Source of the DNA: an uncultured Gammaproteobacteria bacterium
GTDB taxonomy: Bacteria; Patescibacteriota; Microgenomatia; UBA8517
Direction of reading: 5' to 3'
Assembly: GCA_964431555.1 (NCBI GenBank)
Contig: CAYSJW010000033.1
Span: 9,389 to 73,388, forward strand
DNA: 64,000 nt
The translations under genes were made by a program, and so were the position numbers. This document shows, in pieces, positions 28,217-53,488 of the stretch. The notes beneath the pieces were generated by a model. The model saw only the letters and a program-made list of their open reading frames with translations, was not told the DNA's origin and did no database searches. Every line of letters starts with the position of its first letter. The first letter of the stretch is position 1.

Positions 28217-28531
28217 TATAGGTATTTCAAAAGTTAAAAGATCTATACCATAAAACTGGTTTAAAATATTCATCAATGCATAGATTGAAAAAACAATAAA
28301 TATTCCTAAAAATGCGTTTATCAGTTGTCTTTTAGCTTGATCTAGTTTATCTTTTGAACCGCTTGATAATATAATTTTAATTCCACCAAACAACAAAGAA
28401 AATAGAAATAAAATTGAAGCGAACATTAAAGTTATGTTAATAAATGAATTGATCAAACCAGGAATAGTTATATATTCTAAACTTTTAAATTGACCTTTTG
28501 GCAACAAAATTATTTGTTTATTATATTTCAT
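28211..28531 (-). CDS. small 2-TM membrane protein, possibly TrbC/VirB2-like (T4SS-pilin-like family common in CPR/Firmicutes)
   Basis: 106 aa. Hydrophobic helix, then GGIKIILSSGSKDKLDQAKRQLINAFLGIFIVF, which resembles the conserved core of small conjugative-pilin-like proteins. Confidence 0.35.
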   Translation of the reverse strand: MKYNKQIILLPKGQFKSLEYITIPGLINSFINITLMFASILFLFSLLFGGIKIILSSGSKDKLDQAKRQLINAFLGIFIVFSIYALMNILNQFYGIDLLTFEIPIL

Positions 28532-28624
28532 AAATTTATATCAAAATATTTTATCAATTTATAATCCTATTTGCTATAATCTTTTTACCATGGTAAAGCG
28601 ATGGAGGTTTATTAGTGAAATTTT

Positions 28625-31573: not shown

Positions 31574-31612
31574 AAATTAACAAATTATCTATTTTATAAA
31601 AAATCTTAATAA

Positions 31613-33454
31613 ATGATAAAAAAATCCATAATCTTTAACATAATATTGGTATCTATTTACTTTTTGTCAGTAAAAAATATAAAAGCGTCTTCAGAATATC
31701 AAATAAATTCAATAATAGAATATAAGATTCGTGATGAAGGATATTTTTCTGTAACTCATACAATAACCTTAACAAACATCACCACAGAAAAATATGCTAA
31801 ATACTACATAATAAATCTTTCAAATCAAATCCCAGTAAATATAAAAGTTTATGAAAAAGGAGAAGAATTACCAGTAGAAATAAATAAAATTAATAACGAT
31901 TATTCTTTAAAAATTACATTTGTTGAACCTGTCTTAGGTAAAAACAATTCAAGAACTTTTATTGTAACATATGATGAAAAAAATATTTTACAAAAAAATG
32001 GGGATGTTTTGGAATTTTCTTTACCTTTAGTTAATCAGGAGTATAGTGATTGCAAAATTTTGATATCTGTTCCTGAAACTGTTGGAGATTTGGCTTATAT
32101 TACTCCTGACAAATATGAAATTGAAAAGCAAAACAATAGAATAGTTTATAAATTTTCTAAAAACTTAATAAAAAACCAAAAAATTAACGCAATTTTTGGA
32201 AAATTTAAAGTATATTCAATAAAAGTAAATATCCCATTAAAAAATTATGAGAATAAGAATAAAGAAATTAAATTTGCAATTCCACCTGACACATCTATGC
32301 AAAAAGTTTATTACAACAAACTTGAACCGCTTCCCAATAATATTTATGTTGACGAAGATGGCAATTGGATAGCAACATATTTACTAAAGCCAAAAGAAAA
32401 TATTAATTTAAATGTTGAAGGTTATATACAGGTATTTTCTAGACCCTTAAAATTATTTAGACAAACTCCGTCATCAATAATCTCAAACTTAAAGCCTCAA
32501 ATTTATTGGGAGTCTGATGACCCATTAATTAAAAATTTAACAGAAAATTTTAAAAATCCAAAAGAAATTTATGATTATGTAGTCGACAATTTAATCTATA
32601 ACTATAAAAGAATATCACCAAATGCAGATAGATATGGAGCAAAAAAAGCACTACTTAACAAAAATGATTCGTTATGTACTGAATTTACAGATTTATTTAT
32701 AGCTCTTTCAAGGGCTTCAGGTATCCCAGCCAGAGAAATCAATGGTTATGCTTATTCTGACAATATCAATATAAAACCTTTATCTTTAATTTCTGATATT
32801 TTTCATTCATGGCCTGAATATTGGGACGAAGATCTACAAGACTGGAAACCTATCGATCCAACATGGGAATCAACATCAAATATAGATTATTTTAATGGAT
32901 TTGATTTAAATCATATAACACTTTTAATTCATGGAAAAAGTTCAACTTATCCAAGTTCACCTATTATTCAAAATACAGATGATATTAAAAAAAATTTATA
33001 TATATACCCTTCATCTCTACCAAATATAGAAATTAAACCTTTGATAATAAACCATAAAATTGTGAATTATTTGAACCCCTTTAAAAAAGAATTAAATGTT
33101 ATAATAAAAAATGAAACTCCCATAGCTTTCTATAATATAAATCCAATCATCTACTTTGAAAACAAAAAAATAATTACAGAAAAGATAAATGTATTACCTC
33201 CCATGTCTTACAAAAAAATTGTATTTAACATTCCTGTTGGTTTTCTTGCTTTAGATTCTCCTAATAAAATATCAATAGAAGTTAATAATTACATAAATGA
33301 GATTTATTTAAATAAAGCAAAGTTGATAACCATACAACTTATATATATATTTTCAATTTTCATTTTTATAATTTTATTTCTTCTAATAATATTAAATATG
33401 AATTTAATAAAAAGTATATTAGCCAAGATAAATATCAAAAGGTATGTTAAATAA
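31613..33454 (+). CDS. membrane-anchored transglutaminase-like (Cys protease fold) protein
   Basis: Signal/TM at the N-terminus. CTEFTDLFIALSRASGIPAREINGYAY is a transglutaminase-core Cys motif. C-terminal TM helix. Overlaps the uvrC start by 11 nt. Confidence 0.7.
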   Translation: MIKKSIIFNIILVSIYFLSVKNIKASSEYQINSIIEYKIRDEGYFSVTHTITLTNITTEKYAKYYIINLSNQIPVNIKVYEKGEELPVEINKINNDYSLKITFVEPVLGKNNSRTFIVTYDEKNILQKNGDVLEFSLPLVNQEYSDCKILISVPETVGDLAYITPDKYEIEKQNNRIVYKFSKNLIKNQKINAIFGKFKVYSIKVNIPLKNYENKNKEIKFAIPPDTSMQKVYYNKLEPLPNNIYVDEDGNWIATYLLKPKENINLNVEGYIQVFSRPLKLFRQTPSSIISNLKPQIYWESDDPLIKNLTENFKNPKEIYDYVVDNLIYNYKRISPNADRYGAKKALLNKNDSLCTEFTDLFIALSRASGIPAREINGYAYSDNINIKPLSLISDIFHSWPEYWDEDLQDWKPIDPTWESTSNIDYFNGFDLNHITLLIHGKSSTYPSSPIIQNTDDIKKNLYIYPSSLPNIEIKPLIINHKIVNYLNPFKKELNVIIKNETPIAFYNINPIIYFENKKIITEKINVLPPMSYKKIVFNIPVGFLALDSPNKISIEVNNYINEIYLNKAKLITIQLIYIFSIFIFIILFLLIILNMNLIKSILAKINIKRYVK

Positions 33455-34766
33455 AATTAAAAAATTATCTTTTAATAAAAATAATATCAAAAATATACCT
33501 GAAGAACCGGGTGTATATATATTCTTTTCAGAATTAAAACCTTTATATGTAGGTAAATCAAAAAATTTAAAAAATAGATTAACATCATATATGAACTTAA
33601 ATCTTTTACCGAAAACTTCAAAAATGATTTCTATTACAAAATATTTTTCTTTTATTTTAGTATCATCTGAAATAGAATCACTCATACTTGAAGCTAATTT
33701 AATAAACAAATTAAAACCAACTTACAATATTCAATTAAAAGATGACAAAAGTCCCATTTATATATGCATTACCAATGACAAATATCCTATGGTCATAACA
33801 AAAAGAAAACCAAATAAAAATAACAATATTAAATATTATTTTGGGCCTTTTACATCAATAAAATCTGCTAAAAATATACTTTATCACTTAAGAAAGATTA
33901 TTCCTTTCTCTCAACATAAACCTAATAAAAAGGTTTGTTTATATCACCAAATGAATCTTTGTAATCCATGTCCATCTTTAATTGAAAAAACTGATAACTT
34001 AAGACAAAAAAGCATTTTAATCAAACAATATAAGAAAAATATAATTAATGTAAAAAATTTTTTATATGGTAATATGTCAAATTTAAAGAAATCTTTACTA
34101 GATAATATAAATTTTTTAATAAAAAATGAAAAATTTGAAGAGGCTTCTATAATCAAAAAAAAGCTTGATTACCTTAATTTCATAACAAATAAATCTTTCT
34201 CTGATAATGATTACATAGAAAACCCAAATCTTATTGAAGATATTAGAGAAAAAGAGCTATATGATTTAAAATCTATTATAAGAAATTATTTAATATTAAA
34301 AAATATAAAACGTATTGAATGCTACGATATTTCACATTTATCTGGAATTTATCCTACCGCTTCGATGGTTACATTTAATAATGGAAATCCAGACAGAAAT
34401 TTATATAAACATTTTATCTTAAGAAACAACCATAAGGGTGATGATATTTCTGGTATGTCAGAAATAGCTAAAAGAAGAATAAAACACTTTAATGATTGGG
34501 GTAAACCCGATTTAATTTTAGTTGATGGTGGAAAAGCTCAAATTAAAGCTTTTCTAAATGAATTTAATGATACCAATATTCCAATATTAGGTATTGTTAA
34601 AAAAACTGAAAAATTGATAATACCATATAAAAATTCTTATAAAATTATTAATTTAAAAGGACCTTCATTATTATTAATACAAAGATTAAGAAATGAAGCT
34701 CATAGATTTTCAAGAGTATTACACCATAAGCTATTCAAAAAATATCTTATAAAAAACAATATATAA
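33444..34766 (+). CDS. uvrC: excinuclease ABC subunit C, short form (GIY-YIG, UVR and RNase H-like endonuclease domains; no C-terminal HhH)
   Basis: GIY-YIG motif (GVYIFF...LYVGKSKNLKNRL). UVR-like coiled segment. Endonuclease region (YDISHLSG...LILVDGGKAQ). The protein ends at 440 aa, before where the (HhH)2 domain would be. Confidence 0.8.
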   Translation: MLNKIKKLSFNKNNIKNIPEEPGVYIFFSELKPLYVGKSKNLKNRLTSYMNLNLLPKTSKMISITKYFSFILVSSEIESLILEANLINKLKPTYNIQLKDDKSPIYICITNDKYPMVITKRKPNKNNNIKYYFGPFTSIKSAKNILYHLRKIIPFSQHKPNKKVCLYHQMNLCNPCPSLIEKTDNLRQKSILIKQYKKNIINVKNFLYGNMSNLKKSLLDNINFLIKNEKFEEASIIKKKLDYLNFITNKSFSDNDYIENPNLIEDIREKELYDLKSIIRNYLILKNIKRIECYDISHLSGIYPTASMVTFNNGNPDRNLYKHFILRNNHKGDDISGMSEIAKRRIKHFNDWGKPDLILVDGGKAQIKAFLNEFNDTNIPILGIVKKTEKLIIPYKNSYKIINLKGPSLLLIQRLRNEAHRFSRVLHHKLFKKYLIKNNI

Positions 34767-36747: not shown

Positions 36748-38475
36748 TTAATGAAACTCCTGTTTTTCTTCACTAATAAAATCACTCCAACCTTGTATTA
36801 AATTCAATATCACAGCAAAGGGAGTTTCGATAAGAAAATTAAATAGAATTGCAACAACATTGTATTCTTTCCATTTCCTTGCCAGAAACGCTCCAACTTT
36901 TGCGATAGGAACAGACAACATGTCTAAAAGAAAACTTCCAATAGTAGTATCTTCATCAACATTTAATTCTTTAGATTTATTTTTTATAGCAACAGCGGCA
37001 AAAAATGTGAGAGAAATTGTAAATGTGTCAAATATTACTGAAGTCATAGGCAATCCTCCGATATAGAAAAGATACGCTATACCTATAAATGCAAATATAA
37101 TAATTTCTATGTACAAAGAGACCATAAATATTTTTAACAATGATGGTTTTCCATTATCAAATTTAATCTGGAAATATCTTTTCTCAGAATTTTTATATAC
37201 AATACTATTTGCTAGATTAATAACTTTATTCATATTGTCTTTTGATGGAAGTTTAATAATTGAAACTAATAAAAACATTACAAATGTCGGGATCAAAAAA
37301 TCAATAATCGCTGCTTTTAGATTAAACCCCTCATAAAATAACTTCGCCAGTGGAACTTCTATTATAAAAAAGGTAAACCAGTTAGATAAAAATACAGACA
37401 AAGTAGAAAATATAGCTAATCTTATCAATCGAGTTTTAAGTGTAGAGTATCTTTTTTTATATGCTATCTTAATTTCCTTTTCAAACTTAATTTTATTATC
37501 AAAAATCTTATATAAAATATTTGGTTTGTTTTTATACTTCAATAAAATATCGTCAATCAATAAAAATATTGTATCAACATATTCAGCAACTCTAGTGAAC
37601 TTTTTTAAAATTTTATTCTTTAAGTCAATTTCAATTTGATTCCAAATTTCAGGTAATTTTTTTGAGATAATTCTGATCTCATCCTCTTCTAAAATATTCC
37701 AATTTGGAAAATTAAGCTTTAGTAAAATATAAGAAATATATTTATCGTCTAAATCATATAAAGTTTTAATTGTCGATATCAATAAAAACTTTTTAATTTC
37801 ATCATTCTTCAAAAAATCATTTGGTTCAAAACGAACTATATTTTCTAAACATTTTGACATTGCATTAATAATTCCATATTCCTTAAATGGATTGGTTAAT
37901 ATTTCTTCTATTTCACAGGCAGAAATTTCAATTAAAAAATTAATATAATTTACTCTTTGTTTAAACGCAAAAATATCAAATTTTGAAGATGAATCTAAAA
38001 AAATTAAATATTTTTTAATAATTCTCTCAACATCAATTAACCTTTCAAGAGGTATACTATTATTCGGTAAATGACCCCCTCTTATCAATTCAAATGTGAG
38101 GGTTTCAGCTAAATATTTTATATCAAACTTTTTAACAGTAATCTTAGCTATATTTGGAAATATTATTCTTTTTAAAATTCTTTCTATTGCTCCTCTTCTT
38201 AAAGCATTGTCATCTTTCCAATCAATAATCTTTCTTATTTTTTCATAAATTTTAGCTATCCTTGATGCTACCTCATCAACATGTATTGGGGTAAAACTCT
38301 CATTTTCATTTAATAATTCAAAAATATAATTATCTAGAAGTTTGACTATATATTCATTTAATATTTCACCATCGTCATTAACTGTTAAAGCCATATTATT
38401 TTTAATACTAGTTAAATCAATAGAATCATTGTTTTTATGCAAACTTAAATCTTCATTTTGATAAATAACAGCCAT
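36748..38475 (-). CDS. hypothetical 575-aa membrane protein (large cytoplasmic N-terminal domain plus about 5 C-terminal TM helices)
   Basis: No recognisable motif. Last gene of a five-gene minus-strand string. Confidence 0.5.
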   Translation of the reverse strand: MAVIYQNEDLSLHKNNDSIDLTSIKNNMALTVNDDGEILNEYIVKLLDNYIFELLNENESFTPIHVDEVASRIAKIYEKIRKIIDWKDDNALRRGAIERILKRIIFPNIAKITVKKFDIKYLAETLTFELIRGGHLPNNSIPLERLIDVERIIKKYLIFLDSSSKFDIFAFKQRVNYINFLIEISACEIEEILTNPFKEYGIINAMSKCLENIVRFEPNDFLKNDEIKKFLLISTIKTLYDLDDKYISYILLKLNFPNWNILEEDEIRIISKKLPEIWNQIEIDLKNKILKKFTRVAEYVDTIFLLIDDILLKYKNKPNILYKIFDNKIKFEKEIKIAYKKRYSTLKTRLIRLAIFSTLSVFLSNWFTFFIIEVPLAKLFYEGFNLKAAIIDFLIPTFVMFLLVSIIKLPSKDNMNKVINLANSIVYKNSEKRYFQIKFDNGKPSLLKIFMVSLYIEIIIFAFIGIAYLFYIGGLPMTSVIFDTFTISLTFFAAVAIKNKSKELNVDEDTTIGSFLLDMLSVPIAKVGAFLARKWKEYNVVAILFNFLIETPFAVILNLIQGWSDFISEEKQEFH

Positions 38476-39207: not shown

Positions 39208-39831
39208 TCACAAAATCTTATCAAAATAATTTTTAACTTTTTCTTCTAAAAAATTTTTAATCTCCTTCCAATTTATATACTTTACAAAATCAGGTTCTGG
39301 ATCATTTTCAGCATCTTGAAAATAAATCATAGATTTAAGGATAGCTAGTTTCTGAAATGAAACATCTTTATATTTTTTTTCAAACATTTCAAATATGTAA
39401 GAAAGAGAATTCCTTTGAAGAATAACGTAAATATCTATAAAATCTTTTTTAGATCCTCTGGAAGATATCGCTGATAATTTCATACAGGCGATATCAATTA
39501 TTGAAGCCATATAAATACCTTCAAATTTTATTAAATTTTTAACCAAAGGGTATTTATACAATAAAAAACTTACTTTTACGTCATCAATTAATAAATCCAG
39601 AGTTCCATCGGATTCATGAATTATTTTTGGTTTATATGGCTTTAAATTTTGTAAAATGAGATCTCTTTTTGGAAAGTTGTATGCAAAAAAATCTAGATCA
39701 AAAGATTTTCTATGACCAATTTGTAGAGCTAAAGCAGTACCACCTGCTAGATAAAATTCTTTTAAAATATCTAAATTCTTAATATTATTTAGAACCTCTC
39801 TTGTTTTCGGATAAAGGGTTTCTGGATACAT
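39208..39831 (-). CDS. AbiEii/AbiGii-family nucleotidyltransferase (type IV toxin-like, DUF1814)
   Basis: FYLAGGTALALQIGHRKSFDLDFF matches the GGTAL...R.S.D.DF signature of AbiEii nucleotidyltransferases. Confidence 0.7.
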   Translation of the reverse strand: MYPETLYPKTREVLNNIKNLDILKEFYLAGGTALALQIGHRKSFDLDFFAYNFPKRDLILQNLKPYKPKIIHESDGTLDLLIDDVKVSFLLYKYPLVKNLIKFEGIYMASIIDIACMKLSAISSRGSKKDFIDIYVILQRNSLSYIFEMFEKKYKDVSFQKLAILKSMIYFQDAENDPEPDFVKYINWKEIKNFLEEKVKNYFDKIL

Positions 39832-40082
39832 AGTACTTCCTTTTTATTGATATCAAAGTACAAAGAAAAAAAATTTCCTGTTTTTGGAGATATTTTTTTA
39901 CTACTTTTTAAAACTTCAACAATTTTATTTTTATTAATATTTTTTATAAGCCATCTAAAGGAATCAATATCTCCATATTCCAAAACTCTTTCAATAACAA
40001 AGGCATAATTTTCATCAAGATCTAAAGAATCAATCTTAACATCCCATAAATACTTATTTAAAAATGAAGGGATTTTATTCAT
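39789..40082 (-). CDS. small upstream partner of the AbiEii-like NTase (candidate antitoxin/regulator)
   Basis: 97 aa. Overlaps the NTase start by 43 nt on the same strand, in upstream position. Confidence 0.45.
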   Translation of the reverse strand: MNKIPSFLNKYLWDVKIDSLDLDENYAFVIERVLEYGDIDSFRWLIKNINKNKIVEVLKSSKKISPKTGNFFSLYFDINKKEVLCIQKPFIRKQERF

Positions 40083-40150: not shown

Positions 40151-41695
40151 TTAAAAATTAGAATCCTTTTCGCTAAAACTTAATACTTCAAAACTAAAGA
40201 TATCGACGGAACTATCCTTATAACATTCTTTATCTAGATTTGCTTTCTGATGACAAAGCTGACTTAAATACTCATCTAAATTCCAATCAAATTCTTCAGC
40301 AACTTGTGGCAAAAAAGTACCGGCATTAAAACCTTTTTTCACTACAACTCCATCAATACCCAATCTTATATTTTTCCAATCTTTAACCTTTTTTCTCGGC
40401 GTCATAATAGATATTTCTATATCAATATCTTTTAATTCATCATATGTTAATGGTTTAAATCTTTGGTCCTTTGTAGCACTTGAAATTGCGGTTTCTTGAA
40501 TAACTTTATACATAGGTTTTGTAGGTTCAAATTCACCTATACAACCTCTTAAATATCCATTTTTTTTCAAGGTAACGAAAACTCCCATTGGTGTATTTAA
40601 TAAATGCGAGTCTTCTTTATAATTTTCTAATTCTCCCTTTGAAAGAAAGCTCTCTAGTGTATTTCTTGCCAATTTTAAAATTTTAATCTTATCTTGCTGA
40701 TTTACTCTTATAGTAAATTTTTCTAAGAAATCAGAATAACCCACAATGCTTACATATCCAACAACTCTATTTTTATCATTCGTTACATCCCCCGAATTTT
40801 TATAGATTAAATTTTTATAATTTTTGATTCCTAAAATATTTCCAATTTCTAAGGCTGTTTCTATCGCGTCTTTAGCACAAGCTGTGGTCACTAAACCATT
40901 ATATGAACTTTCATTAATTTCTTTTAAAGTATGTTTAAATTTTTCAACATCACCGTCTAATATTGAATTTATTGTTTTATAATCAATATTATTAGCATCT
41001 TCATACTTGGGATAATGTGAAAGATCGGAACTTACTACCAATAATGTGTTTTCATCGAAATTATATGAAAGCTTTTGAGCAAGCATCATTAGAAAATACT
41101 CATCTACTTGACCAATCAATATTGGAGTAATTTTAAAATCATTTAAAACAGATTGTAGGAAGATTAGCTCAATTTCCAAAGAATGTTCTTCTGAATGAGG
41201 ACTGGAATCTAATTTTACAGAATCATTGTTAACCAATGACTTAATTAAGTCCTTATCTAATTCTACTTTTCCTAAAGGAGTTTCCCAATAATCATTGTCA
41301 TCAATTGCAATAAAATTAAAGCTTCTTTTATGACTTGAACCCAAAAGAATAACTTTAGAATAATTATTATCTTTTAATTGCTTATAACCATAAGCTGCAA
41401 CTTGTCCAGAATAGGATAATCCTGCGTGAGGTGTAATTAATATTCTAATTTTTTCCTTAATTTCAAAATTTTCTGCATTATTAAGAAAAATTGATATCTG
41501 TTTTTCAAGATCTTCTTTCTTAGATGGATAAAAAGTTCCTGAAACAGCAGGTTTCCTTATCCTTTCAAAATTTCTATTTACTTCTGGAACCTTAATGTCA
41601 ATTTGATTTTTTTTGTTTAAATAAAATATCCAAAAAATAAGAAATATAAATAGAAAGAAGATAAGAATTTTAATAAAATATCTTATAGATAACAT
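40151..41695 (-). CDS. TM-anchored fusion of a Memo-like domain (AmmeMemoRadiSam system protein B) and an AMMECR1 domain (protein A)
   Basis: N-terminal TM. ILITPHAGLSYSGQVAAYGY is a MEMO1-family motif. C-terminal GVFVTLKKNGYLRGCIGEF is the AMMECR1 LRGCIG signature. Confidence 0.75.
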   Translation of the reverse strand: MLSIRYFIKILIFFLFIFLIFWIFYLNKKNQIDIKVPEVNRNFERIRKPAVSGTFYPSKKEDLEKQISIFLNNAENFEIKEKIRILITPHAGLSYSGQVAAYGYKQLKDNNYSKVILLGSSHKRSFNFIAIDDNDYWETPLGKVELDKDLIKSLVNNDSVKLDSSPHSEEHSLEIELIFLQSVLNDFKITPILIGQVDEYFLMMLAQKLSYNFDENTLLVVSSDLSHYPKYEDANNIDYKTINSILDGDVEKFKHTLKEINESSYNGLVTTACAKDAIETALEIGNILGIKNYKNLIYKNSGDVTNDKNRVVGYVSIVGYSDFLEKFTIRVNQQDKIKILKLARNTLESFLSKGELENYKEDSHLLNTPMGVFVTLKKNGYLRGCIGEFEPTKPMYKVIQETAISSATKDQRFKPLTYDELKDIDIEISIMTPRKKVKDWKNIRLGIDGVVVKKGFNAGTFLPQVAEEFDWNLDEYLSQLCHQKANLDKECYKDSSVDIFSFEVLSFSEKDSNF

Positions 41696-41763: not shown

Positions 41764-43377
41764 ATGTCCATAAAAATATATAAATATATTATAGCTACTA
41801 TATTAATTATATTCTTAGTACTATTAATTTTTACAAATTCAATAAATACTTTAATTCCAAGCAGGGATTCAGGTACCTTTCTTTATGCAGGAAAAGAAAT
41901 TCTTCAAGGCAAAATTCCATATAAAGACTTTTGGGAACACAAAACTCCCCTGATATTCCTAATCAACGCTTTTGCATTAAAACTTTTTAATGGAGACTTC
42001 TGGGGATTATGGATTATCGAATTAATATTTTTATTCCTTTCTTTGTTATTATTTTTTATATTAACAAACAAGATATTTATATTTAATAATTCTATTATAG
42101 GACTAATATTTATTTCTTATTATCTAATAAAATTTTTAGAAGGAGGTAATAGGGTAGAAGAATTTGCTATATTATTTCAAATTGTTATATTAGTATTATT
42201 TTACAATTCACATAATACTTCTAAAATAAAGTCTATTAAAATTTATTCATTTATTACTGGAGTTTTTACTGCTTTTCTTTTCCTTTTAAGACCAAATTTA
42301 ATAGGTATATTTCTTTCAATATTAATAACTAATTCATTCTTACTCTTAAAAGATAATTATAAAAAATATATTAATAACATTATTTTTGTAATTTTAGGTA
42401 TTTCATTACCAATTATTTCCATAATTGTCTTTTTCTCATATAAATCTGCAATAATTGATTTTTTTGATCAAACAATAATCTTTAATATTATTTATTCAGA
42501 TTCAAATATTGAAAAAAAAATTATCTCCATTTTGAACTTCATTAGAACGAACTATAATGTTTTCATTTTAACTTTTATAGGGTATATATTACTTTTAAAG
42601 GAAAAAAAGAAAAATATTATAGTAACATTATCTTCTATATGGCTCCCAATTGAAATTATTTTTTCTTCAATTTCTGGAAGAGAATATAAACATTATTATT
42701 TATCACTTTTAATACCGCTTATTATTCTATTAATTTATCCATTAAATAAATTATTTTCTAAATTAGACAAAATAACAAATAAAAATATTTTTAAAATTTC
42801 TATATTAAATGTATTCATAATTATATCTTTATATTTTATTTTCTTTAACAAAGAAATCATTAAAATATTTATAAATTTTGATGAGAAAAAACCTTTTGAT
42901 AGAAATTTTAACTTTCGTTCATTTCTTTATAACAATTTTGATGAACATAAGGATACGATTTCAATTATTAAAAAGGAAACCACCAATTATGACAAAATAA
43001 TTATCTGGGGAAGCGAGCCATCTTTGTACCTTATATCAAATCGAGTTTCAGCCTCAAAATACTTTTACCAATTTCGTCTTTTTCATCCAAATTACGATGT
43101 AGATGGTCACCACATAAACAGGTTTATATATGAAGTCAAATACAATTTACCAAAGTTAATTATCGATGCTTCAGAAAGTACATACGATAAAGATATCGGT
43201 GAATATTCAGCATTACCTCCTTTAGACAAAGAAAAGATGTTGAAATGGAAAGAAAAATCCAATTACAAAAATTATTATATATTGGACGAACTTGTAAATT
43301 TTATAGAAGAAAACTATTTATTTATTTCAAAAACTTACCACAATAAATGGTTAGTTTATAAACTGAATAATTTGTAA
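41764..43377 (+). CDS. GT39/ArnT-like membrane glycosyltransferase (PMT_2 family)
   Basis: RDSGTFLYAGKEIL.G..PYKDFWEHKTPL N-terminal loop typical of PMT_2/GT83-39. About 11 TM helices, then a soluble C-terminal domain. Confidence 0.65.
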   Translation: MSIKIYKYIIATILIIFLVLLIFTNSINTLIPSRDSGTFLYAGKEILQGKIPYKDFWEHKTPLIFLINAFALKLFNGDFWGLWIIELIFLFLSLLLFFILTNKIFIFNNSIIGLIFISYYLIKFLEGGNRVEEFAILFQIVILVLFYNSHNTSKIKSIKIYSFITGVFTAFLFLLRPNLIGIFLSILITNSFLLLKDNYKKYINNIIFVILGISLPIISIIVFFSYKSAIIDFFDQTIIFNIIYSDSNIEKKIISILNFIRTNYNVFILTFIGYILLLKEKKKNIIVTLSSIWLPIEIIFSSISGREYKHYYLSLLIPLIILLIYPLNKLFSKLDKITNKNIFKISILNVFIIISLYFIFFNKEIIKIFINFDEKKPFDRNFNFRSFLYNNFDEHKDTISIIKKETTNYDKIIIWGSEPSLYLISNRVSASKYFYQFRLFHPNYDVDGHHINRFIYEVKYNLPKLIIDASESTYDKDIGEYSALPPLDKEKMLKWKEKSNYKNYYILDELVNFIEENYLFISKTYHNKWLVYKLNNL

Positions 43378-43407: not shown

Positions 43408-43484
43408 TGGGGTGGGTGAGCGGATTCGAACCGCCAGCCTCTTGCTCCACAGGCAAGCGCTCTAACCATTAAGCTACACCCACC
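43408..43484 (-). tRNA. tRNA-His (anticodon GTG), with encoded G-1 and 3' CCA
   Basis: Cloverleaf folded by hand. Anticodon loop CTGTGGA. G-1 pairs with C73. The CCA is encoded in the genome. Confidence 0.8.
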
Positions 43485-43575
43485 ATTATATAAATTTTAC
43501 TCCAATTTATAACTTTTTTAAATAAAAGTCTTTTTCTATTGAAATTATATTCTAAATAGTTTAATAATTAATTAT

Positions 43576-43893
43576 ATGATTGATATCACTATATCAACAA
43601 TTGTTGGATATCACTTAATGAAACTCATAAGTCACCCTAAATCCAAAATACGCAAAAAATTACCATTAATAAAAATTAAATTTATACAACTGTCGCCAAA
43701 TTTAACTTTCGCTGTAAAAGGAAAGGTAATATGGTTTCACCATTGGATTTGCTTCTCGGTAATACTGATAATATCAATAATTGTTGATAAAGGTTTCCTT
43801 TCCTTACCTTTGATTAAAGGTGCTTTATTGGGGGGTATCATACAGGGATTTACCTATCCGGACTGGAAAAGAATCATACAAAATAAAAAATAA
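43576..43893 (+). CDS. hypothetical small membrane protein
   Basis: 105 aa with two hydrophobic segments. Confidence 0.3.
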   Translation: MIDITISTIVGYHLMKLISHPKSKIRKKLPLIKIKFIQLSPNLTFAVKGKVIWFHHWICFSVILIISIIVDKGFLSLPLIKGALLGGIIQGFTYPDWKRIIQNKK

Positions 43894-43963
43894 AAGTATT
43901 AATTTTCTAGTAATTGACAAGATATAATTAAATATTTCAAAATTAAAATATAAATCTTAAAAA

Positions 43964-44767
43964 ATGAAGTTAAAAGATAAAAAACCAAAAATTAAAGTTG
44001 AAGAATTAAAAGAAGAATCCACAAATATATCATCCGGGAATATTGATACAACTAAAATTACATCATTTAGTCAACTAGATTCTATACCTCCAACTATTTC
44101 AGATTCTAAAGATTCTCAACTTAAAAATAATCTTAATGAAGAAATCAACGAAAATGACACATCCCTAAATAACATAAATGATATAGAAAAAAGTTCAGAT
44201 AGTGACAAAACTACGTCAGAAAATGAAAAAATATCTTCTGAAGAAGTAAAAGAATGGCTAAAAGATGTACGACCAGATACAACAAAAGAAAACCAAAAGG
44301 GGAGAGGTATTGGAGGAAAGGTTTTTTTTATAGTTATAACTCTATTCTTGTTAGGTGCTATATCAGGTGGATTTATTTATTTTCAGAAAGGTGTTAACAA
44401 ACCTTCTATAAATCCAACACCAACAGAAACCCCAAAAATTACACCTACAATTACTAAAGCTCCTGAAGAGATTGTCAATTTGAAGAATATCTCCATAAAT
44501 GTTTTAAACGGATCAGGGATTTCTGGTGAAGCAGGTAGAGTAAAGGACCTACTAATAAAAGGTGGCTTCGATAATGATAAAATAAAAACAGGTAATGCAG
44601 ACTCTTACGACTACTCGAATATAAATTTAAGCGCGAAAGAAAATATTTCAAATAAAGTCTTAGACATTATTAAAGATACATTAAAAGATAAATACAAAAT
44701 TTCTAAAGATATAAAAACTCTTAATGAAGAATCAAATTTTGATATTGAAATTATTGTTGGAAAGTAA
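43964..44767 (+). CDS. LytR_C (cell-envelope-related transcriptional attenuator C-terminal) domain protein
   Basis: Disordered S/T/N-rich N-terminus, TM, then INVLNGSGISGEAGRVKDLLIKGGF (LytR_C-like). Confidence 0.6.
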   Translation: MKLKDKKPKIKVEELKEESTNISSGNIDTTKITSFSQLDSIPPTISDSKDSQLKNNLNEEINENDTSLNNINDIEKSSDSDKTTSENEKISSEEVKEWLKDVRPDTTKENQKGRGIGGKVFFIVITLFLLGAISGGFIYFQKGVNKPSINPTPTETPKITPTITKAPEEIVNLKNISINVLNGSGISGEAGRVKDLLIKGGFDNDKIKTGNADSYDYSNINLSAKENISNKVLDIIKDTLKDKYKISKDIKTLNEESNFDIEIIVGK

Positions 44768-44920
44768 ATCTATACCCTAGTATTTATAAATTTTTATATT
44801 CTTCTTGAATCTTGATATAATATAACGAACAATTAATATTAAAATAATTCTTAAATTAGATTTGTAAAAAAAGTATTTTCAATTGTAAAATATTATTTTG
44901 TTAGGTTATTATCTTTAAAA

Positions 44921-45005
44921 GCCGAGGTGGCGGAATGGTATACGCGCAAGACTTAAAATCTTGTGTCACAATTGTGATGTGCGGGTTCGAGTCCCGCCCT
45001 CGGCA
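44921..45005 (+). tRNA. tRNA-Leu (anticodon TAA), class II long variable arm
   Basis: Acceptor GCCGAGG/CCTCGGC. Anticodon loop CTTAAAA. Confidence 0.8.
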
Positions 45006-45054
45006 CATCAAATTAATTTTTTAGATATTAATCCTCTTTTTAAAATATTACTTT

Positions 45055-45127
45055 CGGGGATTGGCTCAGTTGGTAGAGCGCACGGTTTGGGACCGTGAGG
45101 TCGCCAGTTCGAATCTGGCATCCCCGA
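45055..45127 (+). tRNA. tRNA-Pro (anticodon TGG)
   Basis: Acceptor CGGGGAT/ATCCCCG. Anticodon loop TTTGGGA. Confidence 0.8.
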
Positions 45128-45199
45128 CATTATAATAAGTAAAAAAATATAAAAAAATATTGTACGTTTAAAAAATCTATATTATTATATTTAAATTTC

Positions 45200-45270
45200 G
45201 CGGGATTAGTTGAGCGGTTCAACACCTCCCTTCCAAGGAGGAAAGACGGGTTCGACTCCCGTATCCCGCT
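45200..45270 (+). tRNA. tRNA-Gly (anticodon TCC)
   Basis: Acceptor GCGGGAT/ATCCCGC. Anticodon stem CCTCC/GGAGG with loop CTTCCAA. Discriminator U. Confidence 0.75.
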
Positions 45271-45286
45271 CAAATTAAATAAAATG

Positions 45287-46990
45287 TTATTGATTTAACA
45301 TTGATGATTCGAGAAAAGAGATAAAAATAGGGTGAGGAGAAAGAGGTCTGCTTAGATATTCCGGATGAAATTGAACACCGATAAAAAAGGGGTGATTTTT
45401 TATCTCAATAGCCTCAACCAAAGAATTAAATGGAGAAATACCCGAAATAATCAATCCATTTTTTTCAAAAATTTCCCGATATTCATTATTAAACTCATAC
45501 CTGTGCCTATGACGTTCATATATTAAAGTACCTGAACCTGAATACCTCACCTTTTTAGAAAATAAAGGATTAGGTAAAAACCAAGGATTATTCCTTTTAC
45601 CTCCGTATTTTTTATAAATACTTTCAAGTTTGGTACCACTTTTAACAATGCATGGCCAAGCTCCTAAACGAATAGTTCCGCCATATTGATGTTTTTTTAG
45701 ATACTCTTTTTGATTATCCATTAAATGTATTACTTTATGTGATGATTTTGGATTAACTTCTTGAGAATTTGCATCTTTAAAGCCCAAAATACTCCTTGAG
45801 AATTCTATAACTGCCATCTGCATTCCAAAACAAAGTCCTAAATACGGAATATTGTTCAATCTTGCGTAATTAACCGCCCTAATTTTTCCTTCAACGCCTC
45901 TTTTTCCCCATCCTTGTGGTACTATAATTCCACTAATACCGTTAAATATTTCTTTTATTTCAGAATCTTTTAAACTTTCTAAATCTTCTGAATTAACCCA
46001 TTTTATTTTTAATTTAACCTTTAATTTAAATCCCGCATGTTTTAAAGCTTCAACAACAGAAACATAAGCGTCTTCCAAGAGATAATCTCCTGTCTTTTGA
46101 TATTTTCCTACAATAGATATGTTTATTTCTTTAATTGATCGATCAATTCTTTTAATTAAACTTTTCCACTCTTTTAAATCGTTTTTAATGATTTTTATAT
46201 TCATTTTTTTAGCAACCTTTTTTGTAAAATTCTGTTCCTCCAATTTTAAAGGGACCTTATAAACAGAATCTAAATCTGGTGATGATATAATATTTTCCAA
46301 AGGAACACCTGATGCGAGAGAAATTTTTTCTTTTCTTTTTTCATCTACATCTTTTGAAGCTCTACATACAATAAAGTCAGGCTGTATACCCATTGTATTT
46401 AAAAAATAAACTGATTGTTGTAATGGCTTTGATTTCAATTCGCCAATATTGCCTGGAGTAGGTAAATATCCAACATGTATAAAGCAGATATTGTCTGGTT
46501 CTTTTAACTTAATCCTTCTTGCCGCTTCAAAAAACAAAAGTCCCTCATACTCTCCTACAGTTCCACCCATTTCAATTAAAATAACATCAGCTTTATTTTC
46601 TCTTCCTGCTATTTCCCATCTTTTTATAATTTCGGGTGGTATGTGGTGATACGGCTGAACACAAGCTCCTTCGTAATCCAATGATCTTTCTTTATCCAAA
46701 ACACTCTTATAAACCTGACCATTTGTTGTATAGTTATACCTAGACAAATTAGTATTAATAAATCTTTCATAATGACCTAAATCCTGATCTGTTTCTAACC
46801 CATCGTGTGTTACAAAAACCTCTCCATGTTCTAAAGGATTCATAGTACCTGCATCAATATTAAGATACATATCGCACTTGAAGGCTGTTACCTTAACACC
46901 GTATGATTTTAAAAGTAAACCCAAGGAAGCTGTAAATATCCCTTTTCCTAATCCAGATAGAACTCCGCCGGAAACAATTATATATTTCAC
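45287..46990 (-). CDS. pyrG: CTP synthase
   Basis: MKYIIVSGGVLSGLGKG N-terminus. Glutamine amidotransferase triad region (GLCFGMQ). 567 aa. Confidence 0.95.
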   Translation of the reverse strand: MKYIIVSGGVLSGLGKGIFTASLGLLLKSYGVKVTAFKCDMYLNIDAGTMNPLEHGEVFVTHDGLETDQDLGHYERFINTNLSRYNYTTNGQVYKSVLDKERSLDYEGACVQPYHHIPPEIIKRWEIAGRENKADVILIEMGGTVGEYEGLLFFEAARRIKLKEPDNICFIHVGYLPTPGNIGELKSKPLQQSVYFLNTMGIQPDFIVCRASKDVDEKRKEKISLASGVPLENIISSPDLDSVYKVPLKLEEQNFTKKVAKKMNIKIIKNDLKEWKSLIKRIDRSIKEINISIVGKYQKTGDYLLEDAYVSVVEALKHAGFKLKVKLKIKWVNSEDLESLKDSEIKEIFNGISGIIVPQGWGKRGVEGKIRAVNYARLNNIPYLGLCFGMQMAVIEFSRSILGFKDANSQEVNPKSSHKVIHLMDNQKEYLKKHQYGGTIRLGAWPCIVKSGTKLESIYKKYGGKRNNPWFLPNPLFSKKVRYSGSGTLIYERHRHRYEFNNEYREIFEKNGLIISGISPFNSLVEAIEIKNHPFFIGVQFHPEYLSRPLSPHPIFISFLESSMLNQ

Positions 46991-47049
46991 TTTAAATTTA
47001 AATACTACAATTTACACTTAAGTTGTCAACAATAAGAAAATATAAGATG

Positions 47050-47121
47050 TGCGCCTAGGGGGAGTCGAACCCTCATCATCGGTTCCGAAGACCGCTGCTC
47101 TATCCATTGAGCTATAGGCGC
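47050..47121 (-). tRNA. tRNA-Arg (anticodon TCG)
   Basis: Acceptor GCGCCTA/TAGGCGC. Anticodon loop CTTCGGA. Confidence 0.7.
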
Positions 47122-47165
47122 AATATTCTAAGAAATTATACATTTTTTAATATATAATTTCAGCT

Positions 47166-48278
47166 ATGATATATAATTCAAAATTTGAAAATATACAAAC
47201 ACAAATTTCAAGAATTGAAGAAGAAATACGCAAAACTCCTTATCACAAAGGCACAGAACATCATATCGGAAAATTAAGAGCTAGATTATCAATCCTAAAA
47301 GAAAAACTTTTAGAATATTCACAAAAAAAGGGAGCAAGGGAAGGTTACGCCATAAAGAAGCAAGGAGACGCTACAGTTATCTTAATAGGACCACCATCAG
47401 TTGGAAAATCTACACTTTTGAATAAACTCACAAATGCAAAAAGTAAAGTTGCTCCATACGCATTCACAACAGTTTCCGTAATTCCAGGTATGATGAATTA
47501 TAAAAATGCTAATATTCAAATTCTAGACGTTCCAGGCTTAATTGAAGGAGCCGAGGAAGGGAAAGGAAGAGGAAAAGAAATTTTATCAGTTGCAAGAGGA
47601 GCTGACTTAATTCTTATTATAGTCGATCCTGAACATATATCATCTATAGAAAGAATTAAACACACACTCGAGAAAAACGGAATCAGACTTAATCAAAAAC
47701 CTCCCCAAGTTGTTATTGATAAAAAAACACAAGGAGGAATAGTAATAAGAAGTAACATTTATCAAACAATCTCTAAAGATTATATAAAAGAAATTGCTCT
47801 AGAATTTGGCATTAAGAATGCTGAAATAACCATAAATGAAAATATAACTCTTAACAGACTTATTGATGCGTTCAGTAAAAATCGAGTATACATTCCTTCT
47901 TTAATCGTCATAAATAAAATTGATCTTCTCAACGATAAAAACCACACTAAGATTTGTACTGATGATTCAAATCATCAAAGTATAATACACATCAGTGCAG
48001 AAAAGAGTATAGGCCTTGATGAACTAAAAGAAAAAATTTGGGAAACACTCGAATTTATTACTGTTTATTTGGTTCGTCAGGATGAAGAACCCTCATTTTA
48101 TAACCCTATTGTTATAAAAAATGGAAGTACACTTAGAGATATAGCTAATTTATTAGGTACAGACTTTGTTGAAAATAAAAGAAAAGCAATAATATGGGGA
48201 AAACATGCTAAATACCCGGGCCAAGAAGTATCGTTATCAACAACCGCAGAAGACGGACTCCAAGTCAGATTTATATGA
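47166..48278 (+). CDS. OBG-HflX-like GTPase of the DRG/Rbg1 type with C-terminal TGS domain
   Basis: G1 GPPSVGKST, G3 DVPG, G4 NKID. The N-terminal helix and C-terminal TGS-like tail resemble archaeal/eukaryotic DRG. Confidence 0.7.
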   Translation: MIYNSKFENIQTQISRIEEEIRKTPYHKGTEHHIGKLRARLSILKEKLLEYSQKKGAREGYAIKKQGDATVILIGPPSVGKSTLLNKLTNAKSKVAPYAFTTVSVIPGMMNYKNANIQILDVPGLIEGAEEGKGRGKEILSVARGADLILIIVDPEHISSIERIKHTLEKNGIRLNQKPPQVVIDKKTQGGIVIRSNIYQTISKDYIKEIALEFGIKNAEITINENITLNRLIDAFSKNRVYIPSLIVINKIDLLNDKNHTKICTDDSNHQSIIHISAEKSIGLDELKEKIWETLEFITVYLVRQDEEPSFYNPIVIKNGSTLRDIANLLGTDFVENKRKAIIWGKHAKYPGQEVSLSTTAEDGLQVRFI

Positions 48279-48289
48279 AATAAAAATTG

Positions 48290-48362
48290 TGCCCCTGGGA
48301 GGAATCGAACCTCCAGTCTTTCCCTTAGAAGGGGACTGCTTTATCCGTTAAGCTACAAGGGC
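48290..48362 (-). tRNA. tRNA-Arg (anticodon TCT)
   Basis: Acceptor GCCCTTG/CAGGGGC. Anticodon loop CTTCTAA. Confidence 0.7.
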
Positions 48363-48470
48363 TTAAATTATTTCTGAAAAATAAACTAAATTTAAAAGTC
48401 AAAAACAATTGGATTATTTATAATTATTTATTGATATTCTAACAGATTATGATTTAATAATAAATATAAC

Positions 48471-49565
48471 ATGACAAATTTTTTAAGTAATGAAAATACA
48501 AAATCTTCATCTTCTAATGGTTACGAATTACCAAAAAAAATAGCAATACTTTACAGTTTTGTTAAAAGAGAATATTTTCCTACAGAAGCTCAATATATCA
48601 CCGAAAAAGACGCAGAAAAAGATGCAATACTTGTTGCTGAATATGTAAAAAAATTTGGAATAGAAGTAAAGTTATTTCCAGCTAATTCCAATATTGCATT
48701 GTATCTAAGAAAATATAAACCTGATATGGTTATAAATTTGGTTGACTCTATTAAGGGTATCGAAAGTTTACAAAGCGCGATACCCGGAATTTTGGAAATA
48801 TTAGACATTCCATATACAGGCGGAGACATACTAGGTTTGTCACTCACTACTAATAAATTTTTAGTTAAAAAACTTCAAGAACAAAATGGCGTTCCTGTTC
48901 CTCACTATCAGATGTTTAATACCTATAGCGATTATCTTATACCAAGTCTTAGATTTCCACTAATTTCCAAACTAAATGAAATTCATGGAGCCGTAGAAAT
49001 CACCAAAGATGCTGTTTCTGAAAACGAAAAACATTTAAGAGATAGAATTAAATATCTAATCCAAACTTATAAACAACCCGTAATTGTTGAAGAATTCATT
49101 GTAGGCAGAGAAATCACTGCAATTCTCTTAGAAGGATTAAACAAAAAAGTATACTTGGCAGAAAAAGTTTTTCATAAAGAAAACGAAAAATATGTTTTCG
49201 CTACCTTTGAAGACCAATGGATTAACAAAAATCCTGTCTTTGAGTATGTAAAATATGATGATCCAATACTTAGAGAGTATGTGAAAAAAGCTTTTGATGT
49301 CACTAAAATGTATGACTACGCAAAATTTGATATAAGATTAGATCAATCAGGAAGATATTTTTTTATAGACAGTAATTGTAACCCTGCCTTTGGCCCCAAA
49401 GAAGCAGATGTTGCAATTTCAAATATTTTATCACTATATGGAATTTCCTTTTCCGAAATATTAAAACGTTTATTACTTAACACAATGCGTGATGCTCAAG
49501 GCAAAGAAAGATTACCAGTTCCTGACACATTTCAAAATCAATTACAAGGTAATAACTTTTTATAA
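48471..49565 (+). CDS. ATP-grasp domain protein (D-Ala-D-Ala ligase-like fold)
   Basis: N-terminal Rossmann-like pre-ATP-grasp region (KIAILYS.). Central ATP-grasp region. The Ddl SxEhevS signature is not evident. Confidence 0.45.
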   Translation: MTNFLSNENTKSSSSNGYELPKKIAILYSFVKREYFPTEAQYITEKDAEKDAILVAEYVKKFGIEVKLFPANSNIALYLRKYKPDMVINLVDSIKGIESLQSAIPGILEILDIPYTGGDILGLSLTTNKFLVKKLQEQNGVPVPHYQMFNTYSDYLIPSLRFPLISKLNEIHGAVEITKDAVSENEKHLRDRIKYLIQTYKQPVIVEEFIVGREITAILLEGLNKKVYLAEKVFHKENEKYVFATFEDQWINKNPVFEYVKYDDPILREYVKKAFDVTKMYDYAKFDIRLDQSGRYFFIDSNCNPAFGPKEADVAISNILSLYGISFSEILKRLLLNTMRDAQGKERLPVPDTFQNQLQGNNFL

Positions 49566-50044
49566 ATTTTAATCTTTTCTTTAAGACTTATCTTTGCAAA
49601 ACGAGGAGAAGGAGATGGTAAAGAAAAAATTGATATTTTAGGATATTTCAGAATTAATCCTTTAAAATTCTTCCTAAACAATTTTTCAACATATAAACTG
49701 GTAAAAAATATTTTTTCTATCGGATTATTCCTTATAATATTTTTGATTTCCACTATATTGTATTTTATCACCTTAAGATTCTCATCAGAATTATTATTCT
49801 TTATTCTTTCACACTCTGAAATAATATCAGCTATCGCAATTTTTAAATCAATAAGAAATCTTTTCTTATCTTTTATATTATTTAATTTTTTATCATAAAC
49901 TTTTTCCATTATCTTCCAGAATTGATTTATCCTTCCACCATAATACCAATCACCCCTTAAACCTTCTTTGCCAGGGAAACTTCCTAATATCAAAAATTTG
50001 GATTTTTGAGGTACAAAACTTCCGAAGGGATGTTTTTCTATCAT
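49538..50044 (-). CDS. uracil-DNA glycosylase superfamily protein (family 6/HDG-like?)
   Basis: FLILGSFPG motif A-like region early in the protein. 168 aa. Confidence 0.45.
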   Translation of the reverse strand: MIEKHPFGSFVPQKSKFLILGSFPGKEGLRGDWYYGGRINQFWKIMEKVYDKKLNNIKDKKRFLIDLKIAIADIISECERIKNNNSDENLKVIKYNIVEIKNIIRNNPIEKIFFTSLYVEKLFRKNFKGLILKYPKISIFSLPSPSPRFAKISLKEKIKIYKKLLPCN

Positions 50045-50079
50045 TAAAACACCGTAAAATAAAATTACCTATAATTTTG

Positions 50080-50151
50080 AGCGGTGGACCGGATTTGAAC
50101 CGGCGACCTTCTCCTTGGCAAGGAGACATTCTACCACTGAACTACCACCGC
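50080..50151 (-). tRNA. tRNA-Gly (anticodon GCC)
   Basis: Acceptor GCGGTGG/CCACCGC. Anticodon loop TTGCCAA. Confidence 0.8.
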
Positions 50152-50159
50152 TTATTATG

Positions 50160-50232
50160 TGCCGAGAGTGTGAGTCGAACACACATCTGACGCTCTTCAG
50201 GCGCCCGCCGTGACCACCTTGGCTATCTCGGC
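50160..50232 (-). tRNA. tRNA-Phe (anticodon GAA)
   Basis: Acceptor GCCGAGA/TCTCGGC. Anticodon stem GGCGC/GCGTC with loop CTGAAGA. Confidence 0.8.
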
Positions 50233-50303
50233 AAACTCTATATATTTTATCAGATCTTACAAGCAAAAATTATATATAAAAACCTAATATATACTCAAAA
50301 TTG

Positions 50304-50377
50304 TGGGCTTGTCAGGATTCGAACCTGAGACCTTACGGATGTAAGCCGTACGCTCTAACCAACTGAGCTACAAGCCC
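50304..50377 (-). tRNA. tRNA-Val (anticodon TAC)
   Basis: Acceptor GGGCTTG/CAAGCCC. Anticodon loop CTTACAT. Confidence 0.8.
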
Positions 50378-50498
50378 TTAAATCTTTTTTCACAATTTAA
50401 GGAAAATTAACTTATTTAAAACTTTAAATATTATACAAAAAACTAATAAAAATTATAAGATAAGATAAAACAGGATAGGATAAAATCCTTTTAGAATA

Positions 50499-53060: not shown

Positions 53061-53127
53061 GCTCTTATCTAATAATACAACATGAAGAGTTATTAGAAAA
53101 TGAAGTTATTAATTTTTTAATTTTTTG

Positions 53128-53209
53128 TGCGCGGGACAGGACTTGAACCTGCACGCCTTACGGCACAGCCTCCTCAAGACTGCGTGTATACCAATTTCAC
53201 CACCCGCGC
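53128..53209 (-). tRNA. tRNA-Leu (anticodon GAG), class II
   Basis: Acceptor GCGCGGG/CCCGCGC. Anticodon stem CAGTC/GGCTG with loop TTGAGGA. Variable arm GCC-GTAA-GGC. Confidence 0.75.
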
Positions 53210-53247
53210 ATACAGCAAACTATATATAACCAAAAAACTCTACAGTG

Positions 53248-53333
53248 TGCCGAAGAGAGGATTTGAACCTCCACGCTCATATTCGAGCACACGCTCCTGA
53301 AGCGTGCCTGTCTGCCAATTCCAGCACTTCGGC
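53248..53333 (-). tRNA. tRNA-Leu (anticodon CAG), class II
   Basis: Acceptor GCCGAAG/CTTCGGC. Anticodon stem CACGC/GCGTG with loop TTCAGGA. Long variable arm. Confidence 0.8.
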
Positions 53334-53488
53334 TTACTAAATCTCTTAAAACACATAAAATAAAAATACTTAAATATTATTCAGTTTTATATCTCTAAAA
53401 ATTAAACCTAACCTCAAATTGCTTATGAGAATCATTCAATTATATCATTTTAATGCAGCCACATAAATCCTAAAATACAATAAATCAT

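Follow-up and report, generated by a model that had tools for sequence, protein, structure and literature searches.

The window analyzed here, a stretch of 64,000 nucleotides of contig CAYSJW010000033.1, encodes a protein in which a Memo domain (protein B of the AmmeMemoRadiSam system) and an AMMECR1 domain (protein A) are joined behind an N-terminal hydrophobic helix. We found that this gene is an intact and ordinary member of a large family of Memo-AMMECR1 fusions. In some related loci, fused genes are accompanied by a radical S-adenosylmethionine (SAM) enzyme and by up to two further membrane proteins, and the window copy is best read as unlinked from these partners rather than as a new partner-free system. 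Our favored reading, to which we give slightly better than even chances, is that the protein would be an exported, anchored B-A fusion acting in a membrane-spanning pathway whose other components are encoded elsewhere in the genome. The four-gene membrane cluster of the relatives and the probable export of the fused proteins are the family-level points worth following.

Architecture and breadth of the fused family

Both halves of the protein scored far above curated cut-offs in hidden Markov model (HMM) searches, which bears out the single-polypeptide fusion described in a first-pass annotation of this DNA. The Pfam Memo model (PF01875) covers residues 49-318 with 206.3 bits (cut-off 27) and is matched over positions 2-269 of its 269, and the AMMECR1 model (PF01871) covers residues 340-505 with 171.1 bits (cut-off 25). 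Scores of the NCBIfam models were 234.5 bits for protein B (TIGR04336; cut-off 26) and 164.3 bits for protein A (TIGR04335; cut-off 99). The MEMO1-family motif (ILITPHAGLSYSGQ) and the AMMECR1 signature LRGCIGEF, to which the same annotation had pointed, are both present.

Multiple alignment of 60 fused homologs revealed that H90, H122, D224, H227, and C273 are invariant, and so are the L, R, G, C, and G of the LRGCIG motif; the cysteine of this motif (C385) is invariant across 192 fused sequences. In a phmmer alignment that ends at residue 230, H90, H122, D224, and H227 fall on the human MEMO1 motifs PHAG, SH, and SSD..H. C273, which lies beyond the end of this alignment, we take from family knowledge to be the equivalent of the MEMO1 metal-site Cys.

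The N-terminal transmembrane helix noted at first was also recovered: residues ~6-27 are hydrophobic, with a Kyte-Doolittle mean over 19 residues of up to 2.78, and are helical in a model of the protein computed with AlphaFold2 (AF2) from the 60-homolog alignment. This model (mean predicted local distance difference test, pLDDT, 94.1; predicted template modeling score, pTM, 0.86 for the whole chain) consists of the N-terminal helix at high pLDDT, a poorly defined tether, and two well-ordered domains. The tether is the stretch of lowest confidence, with block means of 78 and 55 and without regular secondary structure. Using Foldseek, we found that the modeled Memo domain matches the human MEMO1 structures 7l5c, 7kq8, and 3bcz (template modeling score, TM-score, 0.83; E-value 1.6e-22), whose fold resembles that of class III extradiol dioxygenases, and that the AMMECR1 domain matches 1vaj, archaeal PH0010 (TM-score 0.81); no solved chain spanning both domains was among the Foldseek matches. 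The high whole-chain pTM is compatible with a fixed arrangement of B and A in the predicted structure. Because A and B are repeatedly fused and are modeled as one rigid body, the fusion may serve as Rosetta-stone evidence for joint, one-to-one action of the two domains.

Table 1. Coordinates of the fused gene, its domains, and its signature residues in the window
Feature	Coordinates	Strand	Notes
Complete coding sequence, fused protein	40151..41695	minus	ATG start, 514 aa; stop codon 40151-40153; open reading frame list and translation check
N-terminal hydrophobic segment, residues 6-27 (YFIKILIFFLFIFLIFWIFYLN)	41615..41680	minus	Putative uncleaved signal anchor or single transmembrane helix; hydropathy, AF2, family comparison
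Tether between anchor and catalytic body, residues 28-46 (KKNQIDIKVPEVNRNFERI)	41558..41614	minus	Lowest AF2 confidence; unconserved among 60 fused homologs
Memo / AmmeMemoRadiSam protein B domain, residues 47-318	40742..41557	minus	Pfam and NCBIfam
Memo metal-site H90	41426-41428	minus	
Memo metal-site H122	41330-41332	minus	
Memo metal-site D224	41024-41026	minus	
Memo metal-site H227	41015-41017	minus	
Memo metal-site C273	40877-40879	minus	
Interdomain linker, residues 319-338	40682..40741	minus	Between the two HMM envelopes; in AF2 part coil, part first AMMECR1 helix
AMMECR1 / AmmeMemoRadiSam protein A domain, residues 339-507	40175..40681	minus	Pfam and NCBIfam
LRGCIG signature, residues 382-387	40535-40552	minus	

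To place the protein in its family, sequence databases were searched with it. A homology search returned 2,530 matches, the best 120 of which are all Memo-AMMECR1 fusions of about 460-560 amino acids (aa) with 43-55% identity; the window protein aligns over 90-99% of its length to 119 fused proteins in this identity range. A protein of identical sequence (P0001) is recorded in NCBI/JGI/ENA on a contig of 84,762 bp. Several of the best 120 are already labeled "AmmeMemoRadiSam system protein B/protein A" by IMG, and one of the 120 is from a "Microgenomates group bacterium". An alignment-based metagenome scan detected at least 597 relatives, and all of the 80 loci retrieved from it encode the fused form. 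In a single-protein scan of genome contigs, one distant archaeal locus with separate genes was observed (L006, Woesearchaeota). Thus, the fused architecture is not unusual but belongs to a very large family that pipelines already annotate.

The relationship of the fusion to the separate proteins is best seen in one relative, L001, whose stand-alone B and A are 38% and 36% identical to the corresponding window domains, whereas its fused paralog is 51% identical to the window protein. Judged by sequence, the fusion is a lineage separate from the stand-alone proteins. A single genome here holds a cytoplasmic set beside a signal-bearing fused copy: positions 7673-11530 of L001 encode in a row, on one strand, a TIGR04337 radical SAM protein, stand-alone B, stand-alone A, and an anchored fused B-A paralog. 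The stand-alone A of this locus has LCGCIG instead of LRGCIG.

Radical SAM linkage and recurrent membrane partners

We then analyzed the genomic context of the fused genes. The radical SAM genes beside the fused genes of L001 and L004 are bona fide members of TIGR04337 (339-374 bits, cut-off 220). Among the 24 loci whose flanks reach 5 kb or more on each side, ten have a TIGR04337 gene within 10 kb of the fused gene, and this linkage holds for fused genes with or without an anchor; the other 14, including the close relatives L003, L009, L088, and L089, lack such a gene within this distance. The best matches of the TIGR04337 proteins outside their own family are protein-activating enzymes (PflA, YjjW-type, and NrdG activases). 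A 403-aa radical SAM protein encoded near the closest relative (L087) was considered as a partner and rejected, as it is not TIGR04337-like.

Clustering of 887 neighbor proteins revealed only two families that recur strongly beside the fused gene, the radical SAM protein (25 loci) and a SpeE-like membrane protein (23 loci). The latter is 640-855 aa long and contains a spermidine-synthase-like domain (PF01564, 33-84 bits); it also shows weak matches to models of membrane polyamine aminopropyltransferase and of the fused MFS/spermidine synthase. Its 11-14 hydrophobic segments are arranged around a soluble, Lys/Arg-rich domain of ~285 residues. In the closest linked relatives (L004, L018, L019, L024, and L029) a third partner was found, a DsbD_2-like membrane protein of ~200 aa (PF13386, 63-78 bits) whose YCLGLC and VCPP motifs are conserved. 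Beyond these three, no neighbor family was recurrent. The gene order in these five loci is always DsbD_2-like, radical SAM, SpeE-like, and fused gene. In two proteins of ~550 aa (P0342 and P0353), a DsbD_2 membrane domain (residues 6-191) is joined to a TIGR04337-like radical SAM domain (residues 294-445), which is a second Rosetta-stone link within the cluster. At positions 4833-11533 of L004, two TIGR04337 paralogs (374 and 359 bits) flank the SpeE-like gene, with the DsbD_2-like gene upstream, and a 13-base overlap joins the second radical SAM gene to the start of the fused gene.

The window itself lacks these genes. As the first-pass annotation had stated, no radical SAM gene was found in it: the CxxxCxxC motif is absent from all stop-to-stop frames of at least 80 aa, the sole looser Cys-motif match lies inside UvrC, tblastn with three verified TIGR04337 proteins gave no match, and the best match of a profile built from 28 TIGR04337-like proteins had an E-value of 0.28 and less than 4 bits. 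A partner just beyond the edges, which would have made this an ordinary three-gene locus, was not found either in a further 8-10 kb on each side. This extension comes from two contigs of another assembly that share 10,895 and 12,957 bp with the window at 100% identity and prolong it by 9,648 bp to the right and 8,447 bp to the left (about 18 kb; 82 kb in all); no radical SAM gene is present in the added flanks. Within the 82 kb, three profiles built in this analysis detected none of the radical SAM, SpeE-like, and DsbD_2-like partners, and the fused gene is flanked by 48.6 kb without a radical SAM gene toward lower coordinates and by 32.0 kb toward higher ones. The window thus shows lost linkage between the fused gene and its partners rather than their loss from the genome. 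Near the end of one of the extending contigs (L090, positions 479-1144, ~8.5-9.2 kb to the right of the window), a Y1-type transposase-like gene with a weak Pfam match was observed, which may be the reason why assemblies break there.

The host lineage bears on how this absence is to be understood. The window encodes DnaE, UvrA, UvrB, UvrC, GatA, and 13 tRNAs at a guanine-plus-cytosine (GC) content of ~23-33%, and all named best matches of its UvrB are from Candidatus Woesebacteria (69-76% identity), so that sequence similarity assigns the host to a Woesebacteria-like bacterium of the Candidate Phyla Radiation (CPR, Patescibacteria), Microgenomates group. In a neighbor-joining tree, the window protein groups with those of L007, L087, L013, L018, L015, L003, and L001, and this group mixes linked copies (L018, L001, and the nearby L019) with unlinked ones. 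Close homologs of the L018 radical SAM protein are named from Gottesmanbacteria, Shapirobacteria, Microgenomates, and Patescibacteria, and ten of these homologs come from contigs identical in length to contigs that bear fused genes. With linked copies intermingled with unlinked ones and the enzyme encoded in related Microgenomates, linkage has been broken repeatedly, while the lineage as a whole keeps the enzyme. The first-pass annotation had implied that the fusion is an unusual version without radical SAM component. This implication is not supported, given how common the fusion is among the best matches and in metagenomes, the TIGR04337 linkage of ten of the 24 loci, the mixture of linked and unlinked copies in the tree, and the presence of the enzyme in related Microgenomates.

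The principal alternative is that the fused protein is a radical-SAM-independent enzyme, whose partners were lost or were never present and whose B-A unit works alone, as is thought for eukaryotic MEMO1 and AMMECR1. The partner-free 82 kb around the gene and the 14 loci of similar appearance are in line with it; furthermore, all catalytic residues are kept, which implies selection on the protein, CPR bacteria have small, reduced genomes, and eukaryotes, which have both domains, are not known to have a TIGR04337 enzyme. However, 82 kb represents roughly a tenth of a typical CPR genome, and the unlinked copies are dispersed among the linked ones instead of forming a separate clade, which agrees better with scattered gene order than with a functional switch. 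The TIGR04337 partner is, moreover, common in related Microgenomates. We regard independence as possible but rather unlikely.

Membrane topology and the proposed pathway

On which side of the membrane the B-A body resides was approached through the N-termini of 192 distinct fused proteins. A long uncharged segment like that of the window protein was observed in 120 of them. Lipoprotein-type signals occur in 17 (nine with the PROSITE lipoprotein signal core and eight with a relaxed lipobox), and a shorter secretory-type signal occurs in 14; 24 proteins lack an N-terminal extension, eight have an extension without hydrophobic segment, and nine could not be classified. The lipoprotein-type signals belong to other lineages and sit where the window protein has its helix (e.g., FSLTMSC/NSQ in L050, MVTTGC/SGQ in L066, LIFFGC/AAQ in L076, and LFVSAC/SSE in L084); FSALA/Q of L069 is an example of the secretory type. 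Because lipoprotein and secretory signals make sense only for exported proteins, the helix at the homologous position in CPR bacteria suggests an N-in, C-out anchor. Net-charge difference around the anchor also favored N-in (83 vs. 35). The signal-bearing fused proteins are thus probably exported as a family, and for the window protein export seems quite likely on these grounds. A disulfide between Cys481 and Cys491 was considered as a further mark of export and dropped, as the pair is equally conserved in proteins with and without anchor; its second Cys is also found in cytoplasmic archaeal AMMECR1 proteins.

In the favored reading, the helix would be an uncleaved signal anchor, oriented N-in and C-out, that holds the catalytic body, through a tether of ~19 residues, on the outside of the cytoplasmic membrane. 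In this position, a Memo site of the Fe/Cu type (H90, H122, D224, H227, and C273) and the LRGCIG cysteine could act jointly on a membrane-bound or envelope-bound molecule, which other components would prepare and pass across. A pathway spanning the membrane is suggested by the three partners co-encoded in close relatives: a cytoplasmic TIGR04337 radical SAM enzyme, a protein with 11-14 transmembrane segments and a central spermidine-synthase-like transferase domain, and a DsbD_2-like membrane protein, a possible route for reducing power or metal to the outside. In the window genome, these partners would most likely be located elsewhere in the roughly 1 Mb.

Several observations weigh against this reading. 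The raw number of Lys and Arg residues is higher on the C-terminal flank of the anchor (3.5 vs. 1.9), an excess seen in 108 of 144 sequences, and the flanks of the window protein itself are balanced (N-terminal +3 with the amino terminus counted, C-terminal +2). This unclean topology of the CPR-type anchors leaves room for a tether that faces the cytoplasm. In L004, L027, L029, L062, and L068, the radical SAM gene is adjacent to the start of the fused gene or overlaps it, which hints at direct contact of the two proteins and would be hard to square with their separation by the membrane. As none of the partners was found in the 82 kb, their location elsewhere in the genome is an assumption; the whole-chain pTM is the one source of the predicted B-A interface; and a literature search yielded no substrate or chemistry for prokaryotic members of either domain family.

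Some of these points would be accounted for if the helix were instead N-out and C-in, with the B-A body tethered at the inner face of the membrane, beside the SpeE-like protein and the radical SAM enzyme, and all chemistry cytoplasmic. Many CPR-type anchors are followed by Lys/Arg clusters (e.g., KRKRE and KKNQ), consistent with the C-terminal excess, the overlapping genes suggest direct interaction, and the canonical stand-alone A and B, as in L001, have no signal and are cytoplasmic. This arrangement is difficult to reconcile with homologs elsewhere, which exchange the helix for lipoprotein or secretory signal peptides, and with the net charge; association with the DsbD_2-like protein, whose family is named for moving reducing power outward, also fits an enzyme outside better. 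We consider a cytoplasm-facing body unlikely, if clearly worth keeping in mind.

Anaerobic sulfatase-maturating enzymes are radical SAM proteins that modify sulfatases, and by analogy, the TIGR04337 enzyme might modify, instead of a small molecule, the B-A protein itself in the cytoplasm before Sec export, in which case the window protein would need a maturase encoded elsewhere. The kinship of TIGR04337 proteins to protein activases, the tight or overlapping gene pairs, and the invariant Cys of LRGCIG between invariant Gly residues would all suit such a role. Eukaryotic MEMO1 and AMMECR1, though, keep the motifs and are not known to have such an enzyme, many fused genes have no radical SAM gene nearby, and the solved AMMECR1-like structures, by their titles, report no modified residue. 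A maturase role therefore appears improbable. That a gene-calling, frameshift, or assembly error joined two genes is next to impossible and found no support, as the same unbroken frame occurs in all best 120 database matches and the 80 retrieved metagenome loci, a protein record from an independent assembly matches the region at 100% identity, and AF2 gives one compact chain.

Returning to the favored exported fusion, a narrower proposal can be made, which we advance tentatively and with well under even odds. The signal-bearing fused proteins would perform the terminal, extracytoplasmic step, after steps in the cytoplasm and the membrane that fall to the radical SAM enzyme, the transporter-like SpeE-type transferase, and the DsbD_2-like protein, and the window copy would be the B-A unit kept alone. 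In that case, Memo and AMMECR1 would not require SAM, nucleotides, or direct contact with the radical SAM enzyme, and in this branch they would act on a lipid-linked or envelope molecule, not on RNA or a nucleotide. If export alone is correct, it would likewise argue for a membrane or envelope substrate, and the compact four-gene cluster could be used for expression in a model bacterium.

MEMO1 and AMMECR1, both conserved from archaea to humans, are tied to human disease. Work on these families reportedly describes contexts beyond that of AMMECR1 with a radical SAM enzyme, and is said to suggest modification of nucleotide bases and of an aliphatic isoprenoid. The window gene alone adds little, as its family is already labeled by annotation pipelines. 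The constraints come from the family: most fused members bear export or anchor signals, and the loci of close relatives also encode a transporter-like transferase and a DsbD_2-like protein. No functional work on the prokaryotic AmmeMemoRadiSam system turned up in our literature search. A passage of one paper mentions "recently-described Memo-Ammecr1 systems", citing Burroughs et al. 2019 (J Biol Chem 294:10211), and some of the partners reported above may already appear in the latter.

Surroundings of the gene and comparison with known systems

The genes next to the fused gene differ from the partners described above. On the minus strand, a DUF6922 gene (39789-40082) lies 68 bp downstream of it and is overlapped by a gene for an AbiEii-type nucleotidyltransferase toxin (39208-39831, minus); the two resemble a type IV toxin-antitoxin pair. 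L047, L058, and L064 also have AbiEii-like genes in the vicinity of the fused gene, probably by coincidence because such modules are mobile. Farther downstream, a 575-aa protein (36748-38475, minus) has several hydrophobic segments in its C-terminal half and no match to Pfam, NCBIfam, or the SpeE-like profile.

On the other side, a gene for a 537-aa polytopic membrane protein (41764-43377, plus) is divergent from the fused gene at a distance of 68 bp. It showed a subthreshold match to PMT_2, a GT-C glycosyltransferase family (17.7 bits, cut-off 26.1), and no NCBIfam match, and its family does not recur beside fused genes elsewhere. A cell-envelope theme among the neighbors (this GT-C-like gene, Wzy_C in L024, and GT87 and BacA in L088) was considered and rejected as nonrecurrent in the clustering of the 887 neighbor proteins.

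The remainder of the window contains the following features. All thirteen tRNA genes are spread over 16 kb (43408-59124), with clusters at 44921-45271 (Leu, Pro, and Gly) and 50079-50377 (Gly, Phe, and Val), a density that is high for one stretch of a small genome. The uvrB, uvrA, and uvrC genes are found together on one strand (26156-34766), and a 613-aa transglutaminase-like protein (31613-33454) is encoded between uvrA and uvrC. A 463-aa open reading frame (55111-56502, minus) had no Pfam match at an E-value of 1e-5. A promoter scan was uninformative in this DNA of 26% GC (32 sites vs. 26.8 expected), and a terminator scan found none.

Compared with the canonical AmmeMemoRadiSam system (TIGR04335 for A, TIGR04336 for B, and TIGR04337 for the radical SAM protein), both window halves exceed the cut-offs for A and B, and related fused genes adjoin bona fide TIGR04337 genes. 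The window protein differs from the canonical system in that A and B form one polypeptide with an N-terminal anchor and that no radical SAM gene is present in 82 kb; its close relatives differ in carrying two extra membrane partners. The fused "protein B/protein A" entries of IMG and NCBI, from Microgenomates and other bacteria, have the same domain order and N-terminal anchor, and nothing substantive separates them from the window protein, although ten of the 24 well-flanked members keep a nearby radical SAM gene, whereas the window copy does not.

Human MEMO1 (3bcz; 7kq8, iron-bound; 7l5c, copper-bound) has the same fold as the window Memo domain, with aligned motifs and ~23% identity. MEMO1 is soluble and cytosolic and is not known to have a radical SAM partner; in contrast to the window protein, it has neither an AMMECR1 fusion nor an anchor. 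The archaeal proteins PH0010 (1vaj), MM0484 (1zq7), and ST0229 (1wsc) share the LRGCIG motif with the AMMECR1 half, which matches these structures by sequence (94-99 bits for 1vaj and 1zq7, and 79 bits for 1wsc) and has the same fold as 1vaj. They are, however, stand-alone proteins of ~200 aa without Memo domain or signal.

The fused MFS/spermidine synthase (NF037959) and the membrane polyamine aminopropyltransferase (NF002956) are the closest known kin of the SpeE-like partner, not of the window gene. The partner scores far below their equivalog cut-offs (e.g., 148 vs. 472 bits), so its members are not ordinary spermidine synthases, but it shares with both families the layout of many transmembrane segments around a central transferase domain.

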